Shown here piece after piece: positions 4,133 through 40,607 of a stretch of 64,000 nt of DNA. Each line of letters begins with the position of its first letter. Position 1 is the first letter of the stretch. The position numbers and the translations under genes are program-made. The notes below the pieces were generated by a model. It searched no databases and was not told the DNA's origin. It saw nothing but the letters and a program-made list of their open reading frames with translations. The DNA is from a virus. Location of the stretch: positions 77,984-141,983 of the IMG/VR virus record IMGVR_UViG_3300028423_000861, one strand, 5' to 3'.

Positions 4133-4179
4133 AAATAAGCCTTTTAACTGTATACTTATTTATGTTAATAAGATGGAAA

Positions 4180-5045
4180 TAGTGAGATTACCTAAATTTC
4201 CGCGGTTGCCTTTGGACCGTACCGTAAACCTTGCGAGTCTACGTTAATCCGTTATCCACTAAGCGCCTTTCAGCTGACTTAGTATCAACCAGTGCTGCCT
4301 AGTTTAAAGTGGTGGCATTTCCACTATCGTTACACGCTACTCGTCCTTTGATCTTCCGCCTGCCTTGCGAGCAGTTCAGAGTCGCTAAACCCTTACGTCT
4401 TCTCTCCGAACAAACACTTCCGCCTTGCGAGCTTCCATGCACGACATTCACCGTAGTGTGTCGTATTAAGCACCTTTAACGTGCAACTGAGGCAGTCTTT
4501 GCGTTTTTGCTATAATGCATCTGCAGGATTTGAACCCACACATTCAGTTCCTAAAGACTGACGCTCTACCATTGAGCTAAGTTGCTAACCTACCAAGACG
4601 TGCTGCCTCTTGTTGCTTCGCATCCTTTTGGGAAACGAAATACAACACGCCTAAATGCCTTTCTCCTTGCGGGATACTAAACGTCTTTTCAAGTATCCAG
4701 CTACCTCACTAGTCGGTAACTCTCAACTTTAAAGATAACAAGTTGCCCTCCTGCGCGAACAGTCGGACTATTTGTTTACCCGTTAACATTCTGTCTTCGC
4801 TAGATTGGAGTGCATAGCTTTGGCTCCCACCAAATTGTAACCTCGCCGGTTGGCCCTGGTTACTATCCTTTCGGGCATTTGCTCTAGCTTAGGACTTACC
4901 TCGCTCTTCACAAGGGGTGCGCTACGGCTTATAGGAATACATCCGTCTGCCACCTAGTCCGGGCTTGCGTAAATGGACCATTGCTGGCGCAAGTGCGTAG
5001 GCTTCCTTGCTTTGGCAGTGTTACCACTGTTATCCTCCTGGACGT
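4180..5045 (-). ncRNA. GOLLD-like giant ornate RNA with embedded tRNA-like element
   Basis: ~860 nt without a credible ORF; several GCAA tetraloop hairpins on minus strand; tRNA-like insert; phage tRNA context; family assigned from memory, no covariance search. Confidence 0.7.
4517..4585 (-). tRNA. tRNA-like element inside the giant RNA (8-nt anticodon loop CUUUAGGA, no CCA)
   Basis: D arm AGCUCAAUGGUAGAGC, T loop GGUUCAAAUCC, UCAGU/ACUGA stem. Confidence 0.7.
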
Positions 5046-27493: not shown

Positions 27494-27568
27494 TGGAGGA
27501 CCGTCTGGGGTTCGAACCCAGGACACGAGGATTAAAAGTCCCCTGCTCTACCACTGAGCTAACGGTCC
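27494..27568 (-). tRNA. tRNA-Lys(UUU)
   Basis: cloverleaf, CCA. Confidence 0.95.
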
Positions 27569-27586
27569 ACCGTTGTTTCATGATAT

Positions 27587-27664
27587 TGGTAGACCGGGTG
27601 GGGTTCGAACCCACGTTGACAGGGATTAAGAGTCCCTCGCTAAACCAAACTCAGCTACCGGTCC
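27587..27664 (-). tRNA. tRNA-Lys(CUU)
   Basis: cloverleaf, CCA. Confidence 0.95.
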
Positions 27665-27684
27665 ACGAATATCACGAAAGTATA

Positions 27685-27772
27685 TGGAGGACCGGGTGGG
27701 ATTCGAACCCACGATGGGCTTGCGCCACTGGATTAAAAGTCCAGTCTCTTCGACCGCTCGAGTCACCGGTCC
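27685..27772 (-). tRNA. tRNA-Lys(UUU) with long variable arm
   Basis: class II-type D loop and GGC-GCAA-GCC arm. Confidence 0.85.
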
Positions 27773-27878
27773 AGGTGAAATGCAACTATATTGTCATCCC
27801 ATCCTGGACCGCTGCGTTGTCCAGGACAGTTAGGTTTTCTTGGCCTTGCGTTTCATTGCTCTGTCCTTTCTGTTTCAA

Positions 27879-30718: not shown

Positions 30719-30795
30719 TGGCAAGGGTGGAGGGAATCGAACCCCCGTCGCAAGGTTTTGGAGACCCGCAGCTTATCCAATTAGAACACACCCCC
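30719..30795 (-). tRNA. tRNA-Trp(CCA)
   Basis: cloverleaf, CCA. Confidence 0.9.
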
Positions 30796-31246: not shown

Positions 31247-31286
31247 ATAATTTCTTGCGACTTACGGGTTCTTCACCCTGCGCTAG

Positions 31287-31781
31287 TATTCTGATCACAA
31301 CTGCTATAAAGTGCTCTGCCTGGTTTCGAACCTTCGGCCAGCATCAGGCCTACAACCTACCGCACTGCTGTATGGGAAGCAGGAGATTTATAGCATGTGA
31401 AATCAGAATAGCTTTTTAGTTAATGTATAAGATATCATCGCCGTTTTGTCTCTGTACAGGCGTAATCCTGCACAGAGGAACTTAGATATCTTATACAATA
31501 ACCAACTCTACTTTCAGCTGCACTATTTGTCAAAGGCGGTCTCGAACCGTCCCGACAACAGTGACAATCTGCCATCGGTGCTCCATATGCAATCCTATAG
31601 TGCATGTGAAAGTAAACTCTACTTTCATCTGCTGATACATGATGGAGTCGAACCATCTCGGCGGGCCGTCGCCCTATTCGCTACACCGCGTATAAAGAAG
31701 GAATCGAACCTTCGCACAGTCACCAAGACCCTAGTCCGGAATCGAACCGGATTACCTTACCACGTGCATCAGCATATGAAA
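31287..31781 (-). ncRNA. tandem array of end-closed RNAs carrying tRNA T loops
   Basis: units 31287-31410, 31424-31497, 31509-31614, 31623-31781; shared UUUCAYAUGC...GCAG stem; five GGUUCGA hairpins. Confidence 0.7.
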
Positions 31782-31799
31782 ACAGAATCAGTCTTCACT

Positions 31800-31985
31800 A
31801 CCATTCGGTCTTCTGCGGGCATTTCAGCCGACATTCTCTCGTGCTAGAAGGAAGTCCTGGGCAACTGGGCCCTCTAGCAGTTGAAAGGAGCACTCCCGGG
31901 GTGGTTAGTCCCATTATGGCGAGCTGATATGTCGCTACTTGGCGACGCTCCTGTGTTTCGTAACAACCAACTGTGTCGCTTGCTA
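31800..31985 (-). ncRNA. unknown GC-rich structured RNA
   Basis: GGAGC/GCUCC, GUCGC/GCGAC, UGCUAGAGGG/CCUUCUAGCA stems just after a promoter. Confidence 0.5.
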
Positions 31986-31993
31986 CATGTTCT

Positions 31994-32022
31994 AAAGTAA
32001 GACATCTTGGTTTAAATGTCAA
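31994..32022 (-). promoter_or_regulatory. sigma70-type promoter
   Basis: TTGACA-17-TACTTT with A-tract upstream. Confidence 0.6.
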
Positions 32023-32074
32023 CTACTTTTTTAAAAAATTTCTTCTTTTTTTGAAACTTTATAAAACAGTAGTT

Positions 32075-32152
32075 TGGTATCCCCGACTGGATTCGAACCA
32101 GCACCCTCCAGAGTGAAAATCTGGCGTCCAAGACCATTTAGACCGCGGGGAC
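32075..32152 (-). tRNA. tRNA-Glu(UUC)
   Basis: cloverleaf, CCA. Confidence 0.95.
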
Positions 32153-32215
32153 ATCTTTCTTCGTCTTCTTCGTCTTCTTCTTCGTGTTCGTCTTCCATTA
32201 CATTGCTCCTAGACT

Positions 32216-32249
32216 AAAAAACCCTCCTAAGCTTTTTGCTTGGAGGGTT
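32216..32249 (-). terminator. attenuator terminator hairpin
   Basis: CCCUCCAAGC-AAAAA-GCUUAGGAGGG followed by U6. Confidence 0.85.
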
Positions 32250-32278
32250 GCTTGAGTATACTATCTGATCTAGTTCAG

Positions 32279-32428
32279 CTAGTCTCTTGCACCCTCCCCA
32301 ATAGGCTCAAAGCGATCTCCATCGAGGCGTGACTGCATAATGCCATAATTCAACGCCCAGCTTTGTTCGCTGGTATTCAGACCTTTGACGGCCTTGTTGA
32401 ATATGATATGTGACATTGTTGTTTGCAT
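32279..32428 (-). CDS. 49-aa leader peptide (putative attenuator uORF)
   Basis: MQTTMSHIIFNKAVKGLNTSEQSWALNYGIMQSRLDGDRFEPIGEGARD*; 3' end contains antiterminator strand GGAGGGUGC. Confidence 0.7.
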   Translation of the reverse strand: MQTTMSHIIFNKAVKGLNTSEQSWALNYGIMQSRLDGDRFEPIGEGARD

Positions 32429-32487
32429 TACTATCTCTGTTTGATGTAGCAGCTTTTGCTGTTACGTTTATTTATCTCTTGTTAATC

Positions 32488-32516
32488 AACATACGCTAAA
32501 AAATCTAACTCGTCAA
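32488..32516 (-). promoter_or_regulatory. sigma70-type promoter (proximal)
   Basis: TTGACG-17-TATGTT with A-rich UP-like tract. Confidence 0.75.
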
Positions 32517-32568
32517 CAACTTTTTTTGTTTTTTTTGACGGCAACATGTCGTCGCCGCCATGTTCTTC

Positions 32569-32597
32569 AATATAGTGCTTGGTGACACAAAGGTCAA
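32569..32597 (-). promoter_or_regulatory. sigma70-type promoter (distal)
   Basis: TTGACC-17-TATATT. Confidence 0.75.
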
Positions 32598-34079: not shown

Positions 34080-34165
34080 TGGAGTTGCGGGCGAGAGTCG
34101 AACTCGCTAGGTGTTAGCCTGCCTTGGATTTGCAATCCAGCCCCTTACCGTCCGGGCCCCGCAAC
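34080..34165 (-). tRNA. tRNA-Cys(GCA) with long variable arm
   Basis: loop UUGCAAA, U73, CCA. Confidence 0.85.
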
Positions 34166-34405
34166 ATCTGCCAGGAGTTAAAACTCCTGGCATTTGGGTG
34201 TTTAACCGCCCCAACCTTCAATGGCGCTTTCGCGACATGAACAGTCAGGACCACATTTGCATGATTCACCACATGGGCAAACATCAAGCAAACTGTCTCT
34301 ATAACCTTCTCTAAACATGTTAGTCTCCTGTTGCTGGCTATTTATCAGCAACATCATTATGATGCATTTTGATATGATGCATTTTGATAAAGAATTTGTC
34401 AACTG

Positions 34406-40108: not shown

Positions 40109-40157
40109 GAAAGGTGTCCTTCTGTTTCGAGGACTGCCCCAATTTTTATTGTTATTA

Positions 40158-40450
40158 TGGAGGGATTCTGTTTCTAGGCTCCCTCCGGGCCCAGCTGATT
40201 ATGCCGCTAGGGCAACCTCAGCAGGTGCTGCGTTTGTGTTTGCAGTTATTAAGATGCGACTATTTCGCGTTCGCCTCCGACTAACTCCACTTCCCTACAA
40301 CGTGCATCGATCCTATGTCGCCCCCATCAAAACATTACTTGCTGTTACACTATGGCCATTAACCTATTTGGTCACAAGTAACGTTATGGTGGAGGCGTCC
40401 GGTACTGCCCCGGAGTCTACTACGCTTTCAAGTTGCTTCCTCGTTAGCAT
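40158..40450 (-). ncRNA. ssrA: circularly permuted two-piece tmRNA; tag ANTNAAPAEVALAA (40199-40243)
   Basis: T arm plus CCUCCACCA (ends 40387) precedes GGGGGCG 5' piece (starts 40325); resume codon GCA. Confidence 0.9.
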
Positions 40451-40607
40451 GTTTATTTATACAGAAATCCCAGGGCATTGTCAACTGATTTGCAAACGGA
40501 AGTAGACAAGAACCACAGTCATAATCATCTTGTACAAGTCTTTCAAGTAATTCCTCTTCAGTTGCATAATCTTTTGTGCTAATGCCCCTGCATTGACATA
40601 TTATCAT

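Follow-up and report, generated by a model that had tools for sequence, protein, structure and literature searches.

A probable ribosome-mediated attenuator in the leader of a phage tRNA operon

The window analyzed here is the right-hand 64 kb (64,000 nucleotides) of the 141,983-bp IMG/VR virus record IMGVR_UViG_3300028423_000861. CheckV puts the completeness of this record, whose G+C content is 41.6%, at 60%, and the record is hence a fragment of a large phage. On the minus strand of the window, upstream of an array of transfer RNA (tRNA) genes, lies a leader that contains a 49-codon upstream open reading frame (uORF) followed by an intrinsic terminator. We conclude from its sequence and its relatives that this leader is probably a ribosome-mediated transcription attenuator, akin to the whiB7 or ilv leaders, that gates the tRNA genes of a phage tRNA operon. 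The end of the uORF is complementary to the 5′ arm of the terminator, this arrangement is conserved, and in two sister classes of the leader the amino acids encoded by the uORF are those of the tRNAs encoded downstream.

We propose that the switch operates as follows. Two host-type promoters, P1 and P2, would start a structured leader of ~260 nucleotides (nt) that holds the uORF. A GGAGGG sequence near the uORF stop codon (segment 2) could pair with CCCUCC in the terminator 5′ arm (segment 3), or segment 3 could instead pair with a second GGAGGG (segment 4) that precedes a run of six U residues. A ribosome reaching the stop codon would cover segment 2, and the 3′ end of its 16S rRNA may pair with this Shine-Dalgarno-like motif; the terminator would then form and transcription would end. 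A ribosome that lags or stalls earlier would leave segment 2 free to capture segment 3 as it emerges, and polymerase would read through. Read-through in the window would enter a Glu-rich mini-ORF and tRNA-Glu(UUC) and then add to promoter-driven transcription of the array. The uORF would in this way report the decoding of its codons and impose negative feedback on phage tRNA supply: the phage would probably make more tRNA when ribosomes decode slowly.

Related leaders, found on other contigs and designated by L numbers, fall into three classes according to their ORFs: class A, which includes the window leader, has 46 to 52 codons, and classes B and C have about 29 codons each. The 5′ motif and the 3′ switch are common to all three. 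The features of the window leader and of the genes directly behind it are listed in the order of transcription.

32569-32597, minus strand: promoter P1, TTGACC-17-TATATT (10/12), with an A-rich upstream tract; homologous promoters occur in L003 and L004
32488-32516, minus strand: promoter P2, TTGACG-17-TATGTT (9/12), conserved in L002, L003, L004, L055, L056, and L057
32467-32477, minus strand: single-stranded 5′ motif AGAUAAAUAAA, invariant in 14/14 class A leaders and also found in classes B and C
32446-32465, minus strand: two-tier hairpin of the 5′ untranslated region (5′ UTR), with an outer helix of the GUAAC/GUUAC type and an inner helix, from folds and alignment
32429-32445, minus strand: purine-rich, unstructured putative ribosome-loading region (ending in CAGAGAUAGUA) before the AUG, with a conserved AGAGA-type motif
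32279-32428, minus strand: 49-codon uORF from the ORF list, TAG stop at 32279-32281, its frame open in all distinct copies
32344-32405, minus strand: three-way junction within the uORF in the minimum-free-energy (MFE) fold, with closing helix CAUA-UUCAAC / GUUGAA-UAUG and two hairpins, AGGCC/GGUCU and CCAGC/GCUGG
32319-32336, minus strand: segment 1, candidate protector, paired with segment 2 in the terminator-state MFE fold
32289-32304, minus strand: segment 2, 5′ strand of the antiterminator, core GGAGGG at 32292-32297, 10 nt before the stop codon
32254-32286, minus strand: predicted hairpin over the stop codon and spacer, enclosed by the antiterminator helix
32216-32249, minus strand: intrinsic terminator from folds, consisting of 5′ arm AACCCUCCAAGC (segment 3), loop, 3′ arm GCUUAGGAGGGUU (segment 4), and U6
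32153-32210, minus strand: AGGAG ribosome-binding site and Glu-rich part (MEDEHEEEDEEDEER, 9 GAA codons) of mini-ORF 32031-32198, which runs into tRNA-Glu
32075-32152, minus strand: tRNA-Glu(UUC) from tRNA calls, strictly dependent on read-through; a tRNA-Glu gene occupies the same position in L010, L012, L015/L029, L049/L052, and L054
31994-32022, minus strand: promoter P3, TTGACA-17-TACTTT, read in the sequence, which would drive the rest of the array independently

An earlier note on this DNA had described tandem promoters, a 49-codon ORF, a terminator, and complementary strands, and each was recovered at its minus-strand coordinates. It had also proposed the attenuator geometry, in which the end of the uORF competes for the terminator 5′ arm; this geometry is conserved in every related copy found. 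The hallmarks of an attenuator seen here are a leader ORF with a loading site, a terminator before the genes to be regulated, and a maskable antiterminator that excludes the terminator.

Complementarity between the uORF end and the terminator is strong. GGAGGGUGC (positions 32289 to 32297) is complementary to GCAACCCUCC of the terminator 5′ arm, and the duplex energy of −14.5 kcal/mol is matched by 2% of local 40-nt shuffles and, among 40-nt windows taken across the genome, by 0.4%. The terminator stem, AACCCUCC plus AAGC paired with GCUU plus A plus GGAGGGUU and followed by U6, is present in the MFE fold at about −18 kcal/mol; its bulged A caused a simple terminator scan to miss the 32216-32249 hairpin. 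In the local fold of the window, the antiterminator state has −29.2 kcal/mol, compared with −28.6 kcal/mol when the motif is masked. When nascent transcripts were folded up to the terminator loop, the MFE structure paired CCCUCC with segment 2 in 35/35 motif-carrying copies. In class B, GCUUGGAGGG is complementary to CCCUCCAAGC over all 10 nt, and L055 retains the antiterminator fold with changed arms.

Is GGAGGG maintained as RNA or as codons? The Glu codon in segment 2 is GAG in 35 of 36 copies (24% GAG in the genome). The codon before it ends in G, again in 35/36 copies and across 11 different codons, compared with 16% G at third positions in the genome. In L181 the motif is shifted by one nt relative to the frame and encodes SGGV in place of LEGA. 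Fixation of GGAGGG at synonymous sites, together with this displacement of the motif in L181, indicates selection on the RNA motif. With a stop codon in the ribosomal A site, GGAGGG would lie 7 to 10 nt upstream of the P site, inside the predicted footprint and at a spacing suited to pairing with the 16S 3′ end. The invariant GGAGG, CCUCC, and GGAGG cores would fit a three-way constraint and, equally, a Shine-Dalgarno-masking role.

The remainder of the leader is structured as well, with a z score of −4.8 for the 276-nt fold. Between relatives, the inner helix of the 5′ UTR changes in sequence while its pairing is kept, and the stop-spanning hairpin is preserved with other sequences (AGUGU..ACACU and others). 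The ribosome-loading tract is unpaired in 14/14 class A 5′ UTR folds, with a conserved AUG behind it. The segments of the three-way junction are conserved as nucleotides, and its hairpins differ in sequence among relatives. The position of segment 1 (codons about 32 to 36) recurs in class A, with poorly conserved sequence. On a MAFFT alignment, RNAalifold recovered the outer 5′ helix and the terminator but no more; because of misalignment, the inner helices were judged sequence by sequence.

Transcripts from P2 should start a few nt before AGAUAAAUAAA. The related sequence GATAAATAA has 7 copies in the record, and the AGAUAAAUAAA motif is thus not general in the genome; GATAAATAAA was likewise ruled out as a general phage promoter, with only 7 copies in the 142-kb record. 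Between P1 and P2, relatives carry 100 to 190 nt of GC-rich sequence (L003:7927-8127 and L004:7170-7260). The corresponding interval of the window (32537-32559, minus strand) holds just a short GGCGGC..GCCGUC hairpin followed by an A run.

Relatives were found by synteny and motif searches. Neither blastn of the region nor tblastn of the 49-amino-acid (49-aa) peptide against a phage collection gave a usable match, a neighboring 383-aa protein gave no more than remote partial matches there, and IMG/VR contained no match to back-translated patterns of this protein or to an exact tRNA-Glu 26-mer. The 383-aa gene, which lies upstream of the leader, has metagenome homologues at 36 to 52% identity. 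Their contigs are syntenic, with an RNaseH-like gene, tRNA-Cys, the 383-aa gene, sometimes more genes, and a tRNA array starting with tRNA-Asn. In L002, L003, and L004, the same leader sits between the 383-aa gene and the array. In order, it has a promoter, AGAUAAAUAAA, a 5′ hairpin, and an AUG-CAA ORF of 47 to 51 codons with GGAGGG or GGGGGGC close to its stop; a further hairpin and an identical CCCUCCAAGC...GCUUAGGAGGG-U6-7 terminator follow. Contigs picked by protein synteny alone thus carry the same terminator stem.

A search with the terminator motif gave 8 IMG/VR and 40 metagenome loci, and gene synteny or uORF sequence gave eight further contigs. Synteny, which is independent of the terminator motif, identified leaders in L002-L005, L056, and L057 and a diverged copy in L055. 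The class B uORF is of the MTLSLAISLAWTPGQSNPGVDLCLEGARD type and that of class C of the MT.MFKHMFIKSIRECCEYRFGVSEGYGG type; both classes occur together on one contig in L007 and L009. A search with the class B uORF pattern mostly returned unrelated coding sequence and gained five variants (L181, L186, L197, L205, and L206). The pattern AGATAAATAANNGTAACA was rejected: it hit 80 loci, the leader profile matched none of the new ones, and we regard them as chance matches.

We asked whether the uORF is kept as a reading frame. The homologous frame is open from the conserved AUG in 39/39 distinct copies, with lengths of 23 to 57 codons, and in L055 an unrelated frame is open for 90 codons; the other two frames of the 39 copies contain 1.3 to 3.2 stops on average. 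The stop codon itself varies (TAA in 22, TAG in 11, and TGA in 6 of the 39), and the distance from GGAGGG to the stop is 10 or 13 nt in the 35 motif-carrying copies, 9 nt in L181. Identities between the window uORF and those of L002-L004 are 0.48 to 0.68, 0.46 to 0.68, and 0.40 to 0.61 at codon positions 1, 2, and 3, which shows no codon periodicity; the neighboring 383-aa gene gives about 0.6, 0.7, and 0.35. This flat profile agrees with the earlier prediction that the peptide would not be conserved as protein. Such peptide conservation as is apparent is largely RNA pairing: the segments that encode QHI and LNY pair through UUCAAC/GUUGAA, and the Trp codon coincides with the 3′ strand of the CCAGC/GCUGG hairpin. 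A Pfam search of the 49-aa peptide gave no match. A TnaC-like fixed distance from Trp to the stop codon was considered and dropped, as in four class A peptides counted by eye this spacing ranges between 23 and 28 residues. An open frame with a varying stop codon and no codon periodicity suggests that translation matters and the peptide does not. We conclude from these comparisons that an open, decodable frame is under selection, whereas its peptide product is not.

What would such a frame be decoded for? Each leader lies upstream of a tRNA block and on the same strand, and classes B and C precede different blocks. The class B block encodes tRNAs for Asn, Ser, Val, Trp, Ser, Asp, Gly, Thr, Leu, Gln, Pro, and sometimes Ala; the class C block encodes those for Lys, Glu, Ile, Tyr, Cys, Met, Arg, Phe, and His. 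We defined the core of each uORF as the frame without its start codon and without the seven final codons, on which the switch imposes constraints, and compared it with composition-matched, stop-free shuffles. Class B cores lie 86 to 100% within {A,D,G,L,N,P,Q,S,T,V,W}, compared with a fraction of about 0.60 in shuffles (each P ≤ 0.006), and class C cores lie 70 to 93% within {C,E,F,H,I,K,M,R,Y}, compared with about 0.45 (each P ≤ 0.01). Each alphabet equals the amino acid set of the tRNA block downstream. Pooled core residues give a table of 343/27 versus 25/100, for which P values are inflated because the sequences are related; the per-sequence shuffles and a test of variable alignment columns are independent of pooling. 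In that test, 66 of 77 residue types in the variable columns of class B, and 23 of 34 in those of class C, stay within the alphabet.

The correspondence extends to individual codons. It is the downstream block, not the upstream one, that is matched, whichever order the blocks take (L013 versus L035). At least one uORF codon exists for every downstream tRNA specificity in 9 of 11 copies, and 138/168 in-set degenerate codons are readable by downstream anticodons, compared with 118.7 expected; CUA with tRNA-Leu(UAG) is an example. In L038, whose block contains two tRNA-Leu genes and one tRNA-Asp gene, the uORF has acquired three Leu codons and two Asp codons. Classes B and C amount to natural swap experiments, with disjoint alphabets before disjoint tRNA blocks. 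A match of this kind makes sense only if the frame is decoded, and we infer that the uORF is translated.

Class A uORFs encode 18 to 20 types of amino acid and stand ahead of near-complete arrays, a composition that is consistent with a codon panel and not diagnostic of one. The codon counts given earlier for the window uORF were all confirmed: 37 distinct codons and 19 amino acids, with no Cys and with the named codon sets. Against 49-codon windows of the genome's genes (mean, 29.3; standard deviation, 2.8), of which 0.34% reach 37 codons, the window uORF stands at the 99.7th percentile. We rejected codon diversity as a selected feature, since class A is slightly above, class B above, and class C below composition-matched expectation; within class A, diversity is within composition-matched chance for each copy (P, 0.075 to 0.88). 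Because class C uORFs are less diverse than chance, the principle of the family is to match the downstream set and not to sample codons maximally. By homology with the two sister classes, the window uORF most likely reports how well the codons of the downstream tRNAs are decoded. With 19 amino acids and a near-complete repertoire downstream, it would be a broad sensor.

We found no promoter between the terminator and the mini-ORF/tRNA-Glu unit of the window. In seven distinct loci, the window among them, a ribosome-binding site and a 13- to 16-codon Glu-rich mini-ORF (40 to 60% Glu, almost all GAA) leading into tRNA-Glu come next after the terminator, with no intervening promoter. In L051, L056, L007, L037, L038, and the class C leader of L013, the terminator is followed directly by a conserved RNA, element X, and then by tRNAs, again with no promoter, and in L033 tRNA-Glu follows directly. 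These promoter-less tRNA and RNA genes would need read-through, which argues for an attenuator and against the end of a unit. In the window, tRNA-Glu(UUC) is the sole gene between the leader terminator and P3, and the strict need for read-through is thus limited to this gene. The notion that the element switches the whole array accordingly does not hold for the window, where only tRNA-Glu lacks its own promoter.

Two features of these loci deserve description. The mini-ORF always runs 4 to 40 codons into the tRNA-Glu gene (window 32031-32210, minus strand; L010, L012, L015, L029, L049, and L054); in L012 the downstream tRNA is Glu(CUC), though the mini-ORF codons are GAA. Element X is a conserved RNA of ~175 nt between the leader terminator or P3 and the first tRNA of a block, with the motifs AUGCGGAACG.GACUGC, AAUGGGCG, GAUGGA, and AUAGGACC and with compensatory changes in 17 of 26 predicted pairs. 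It occurs at L056:9690-9888, L004:7746-7937, L051:682-863, L037:4792-4906, and about 25 other loci; it has no match in the window and is not in Rfam.

Several observations weigh against the attenuator, or against the part given to it here. The Shine-Dalgarno match of the uORF is weak, of the AGAGA type. The codon diversity of the window uORF is explained by base composition: stop-free sequences of its own composition average 33.4 codons (standard deviation, 2.2; P = 0.075). Its tRNA matching is at background, with 38/49 codons readable by the 46 tRNAs of the record, compared with 39.7 ± 3.0 in gene windows. The idea of codon sampling put forward in the earlier note draws strong indirect support from classes B and C, whose alphabets match and cover the downstream block, and none from the diversity of the window uORF itself. 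For the whole leader, antiterminator minus terminator energies average +1.8, +2.4, and +4.9 kcal/mol in classes A, B, and C, so that the two states are close in energy and the terminator state is usually slightly the more stable. Among the terminator variants found, there is no triple covariation of segments 2, 3, and 4. The outer terminator pair is altered by compensatory double changes in L206 (U-A), class C of L013 (G-C), and L055 (A-U), and segment 2 stays GGAGG-like in all of them, which leaves one mismatch in L013. Hence, relatives upstream of tRNA arrays showed the expected uORF, antiterminator/terminator pair, and unconserved peptide but not the covariation that had been anticipated. 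An ungapped inner extension of the antiterminator helix covaried no better than permuted partners (P = 0.93). For an RNA polymerase pause that would synchronize the ribosome, the 5′ UTR hairpin and the three-way junction are candidates only. P3 lies 53 nt past tRNA-Glu and would spare most of the array the need for read-through. Conserved P3-type promoters before the main array in the window and several class A loci, and one or two near-consensus promoters downstream of class B copies, likewise speak against a master switch.

Could the element be an ordinary short unit, a small gene or RNA with its own promoters and terminator, in which the GGAGGG complementarity is nonregulatory and the genes beyond are served by their own promoters or by leakage? 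The conserved promoter that follows in the window, the promoters after most class B copies, a strong and thermodynamically slightly favored terminator, and the lack of triple covariation would suit this explanation. However, the synonymous-site fixation of GGAGGG and its displacement relative to the frame in L181 reveal selection on an RNA motif, the peptide lacks a protein-type conservation pattern, and promoter-less tRNA-Glu or RNA genes stand behind the terminator in many loci. Nor would a free-standing gene explain uORF alphabets that track the downstream tRNAs. We therefore think an ordinary unit unlikely. Equally improbable, in our judgment, is an RNA-only switch, in which the structured leader recognizes a ligand, a protein, or a tRNA by direct binding, in the manner of riboswitches and T-boxes, with the frame left untranslated. 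Such a switch would account for elaborate structure kept while stem sequences differ among relatives, for the fold z score, for conservation that is flat over codon positions, and for the weak Shine-Dalgarno match. It would not lead one to expect a frame that is open in every copy, over lengths of 23 to 90 codons and despite sequence turnover, with a stop of conserved position and varying identity, an AUG conserved behind an unpaired purine-rich tract, and an amino acid alphabet matching the downstream tRNAs. Rfam 15 gave no family at the gathering threshold on the leader (32216-32477) and only tRNAs, GOLLD, and transfer-messenger RNA (tmRNA) elsewhere in the window. The sole subthreshold match on the switch region, to PyrR-binding-site (20.4 bits against a 54-bit threshold; E = 3.4), is insignificant, and no T-box match appeared even at E ≤ 1 in the window or E ≤ 10 in L056.

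Alternatively, control might be translational: AGGAGGG of the 3′ arm would be the ribosome-binding site of the next gene, masked by CCCUCC and unmasked by the upstream GGAGGG, with small-ORF translation or pausing at the uORF stop as the output. The GGAGG, CCUCC, and GGAGG cores are invariant even where the outermost pair changes, an ATG stands 7 to 9 nt past the 3′ arm in many copies (e.g., L008, L010, L018, and L030), and the distance from GGAGGG to the last sense codon is 7 or 10 nt, a Shine-Dalgarno-like spacing. A U6-7 tract, however, always follows the stem, also in loci found without requiring one. The window moreover has no start codon correctly spaced from the 3′ arm, its mini-ORF has an AGGAG of its own, and in many loci the next gene is an RNA and not an ORF. 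As the whole explanation, translational control has a low probability in our estimate; it is compatible with attenuation and could act alongside it.

The proposed attenuator has counterparts in bacteria. The ilvGMEDA (Leu/Val/Ile) and thr (Thr/Ile) leaders are multivalent leader-peptide attenuators, and trpL, hisL, leuL, and pheL each respond to a single amino acid. The phage leader shares with these enterobacterial leaders a short ORF, mutually exclusive antiterminator and terminator hairpins, control codons that in classes B and C are clearly cognate, and a fold that would be set by ribosome position. It differs in that theirs are runs of one to three amino acids before biosynthetic enzymes, whereas the products here are tRNAs and the panels comprise 9 to 11 amino acids (classes B and C) or 19 to 20 (the window class), mostly with one to three codons each; a 1:2 protector hairpin and a pause site are, moreover, only candidates in the phage leader. 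The pheM leader controls the operon of pheST, encoding phenylalanyl-tRNA synthetase, and so is also a leader-peptide attenuator that acts on a decoding component through the reading of cognate codons, but its target is a synthetase, its control codons are all for Phe, and it belongs to bacteria. T-boxes, too, are leader RNAs that switch between terminator and antiterminator according to the state of tRNA; unlike the phage leader, they bind uncharged tRNA directly and have no translated ORF.

A close parallel is the mycobacterial whiB7 leader, for which experiments showed that efficient uORF translation leads to the terminator, stalling leads to the antiterminator, and the amino acid content of the uORF sets what is sensed (PMC10274678). 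The whiB7 uORF of Mycobacterium smegmatis contains every amino acid except Cys, and whiB7 is tuned to alanine (PMC10274678). Both systems place a long, amino acid-diverse uORF before a rho-independent terminator, and the window uORF likewise lacks Cys only. In contrast, whiB7 is a transcription factor in a bacterial chromosome, and here phage tRNA genes stand downstream. The phage leader also exists in several classes per lineage, with alphabets matched to separate tRNA blocks, its switch strands resemble Shine-Dalgarno and anti-Shine-Dalgarno sequences, and the two leaders have no sequence homology.

Why phages carry large tRNA sets, and how these are regulated, is an open question. Full-text literature searches returned no account of attenuation of phage tRNA genes or of leader-peptide attenuation of tRNA genes. 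If the attenuator is real, leader-peptide attenuation, known for amino acid operons and whiB7, can control tRNA genes themselves, and phages gauge decoding capacity codon by codon and top up only shortages. It would also provide a testable link between phage tRNAs, host tRNA depletion (by starvation, host shut-off, or tRNA-cleaving defenses), and phage gene expression. A bolder picture, possible but doubtful at present, is that a lineage of large aquatic phages carries self-tuning tRNA operons in which each uORF is a codon panel for its block and the terminator 5′ arm mimics the anti-Shine-Dalgarno sequence and competes with the terminating ribosome for the Shine-Dalgarno-like strand near the uORF end. 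The window version would then be a general form that raises tRNA output upon any host tRNA depletion; if this included depletion by anticodon nucleases, as it could, the leader would act as a counterdefense sensor.

Nearly all features around the leader share its minus-strand orientation. The window has 42 tRNAs by ARAGORN, with two more from Rfam close by, at 34083-34165 and 30722-30795. The former, on the minus strand with a Cys-type GCA anticodon loop, is detected by Rfam only (39.9 bits). It lies upstream of the leader, so that the leader, although followed by the array as the earlier note had it, does not stand at the very start of the tRNA region. The sequence at 34083-34402 (minus strand) comprises a promoter, a GATAAATA motif, an AGGAG-type site, a 38-codon ORF with 7 Cys codons, a hairpin without a U tract, and then the GCA-loop tRNA. 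This Cys-rich ORF ends in ..IEGWGG, as class C leaders do.

A caveat attached to the original proposal, that a promoter at 31994-32022 could drive most of the array independently, was borne out: P3, including a motif in its spacer, is common to L002, L003, L004, L039, and L057, and only tRNA-Glu precedes it. P3 (minus strand) and its counterparts have an unusual −10 element, TACTTT, and a conserved spacer, AAACCAAGA.., which suggests a regulated promoter and not one of the plain sigma-70 type. From P3 to tRNA-Asn, 740 nt (31250-31990, minus strand) contain no element X. Five T-arm-like hairpins (stem-GGTTCGAnnCC-stem) occur in this stretch and are called as tRNA by neither ARAGORN nor Rfam.

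Elsewhere on the minus strand, Rfam identifies a GOLLD RNA at 4179-4653 (182 bits); a tRNA-like gene at 4515-4586 lies within it. Rfam also identifies a permuted alpha-type tmRNA at 40156-40505 (106 bits). At ~27833-27856 (minus strand), an 8-codon ORF, MKRKAKKT-stop, with 4 Lys codons is followed by a hairpin, and three tRNA-Lys genes lie just downstream at 27494-27772.

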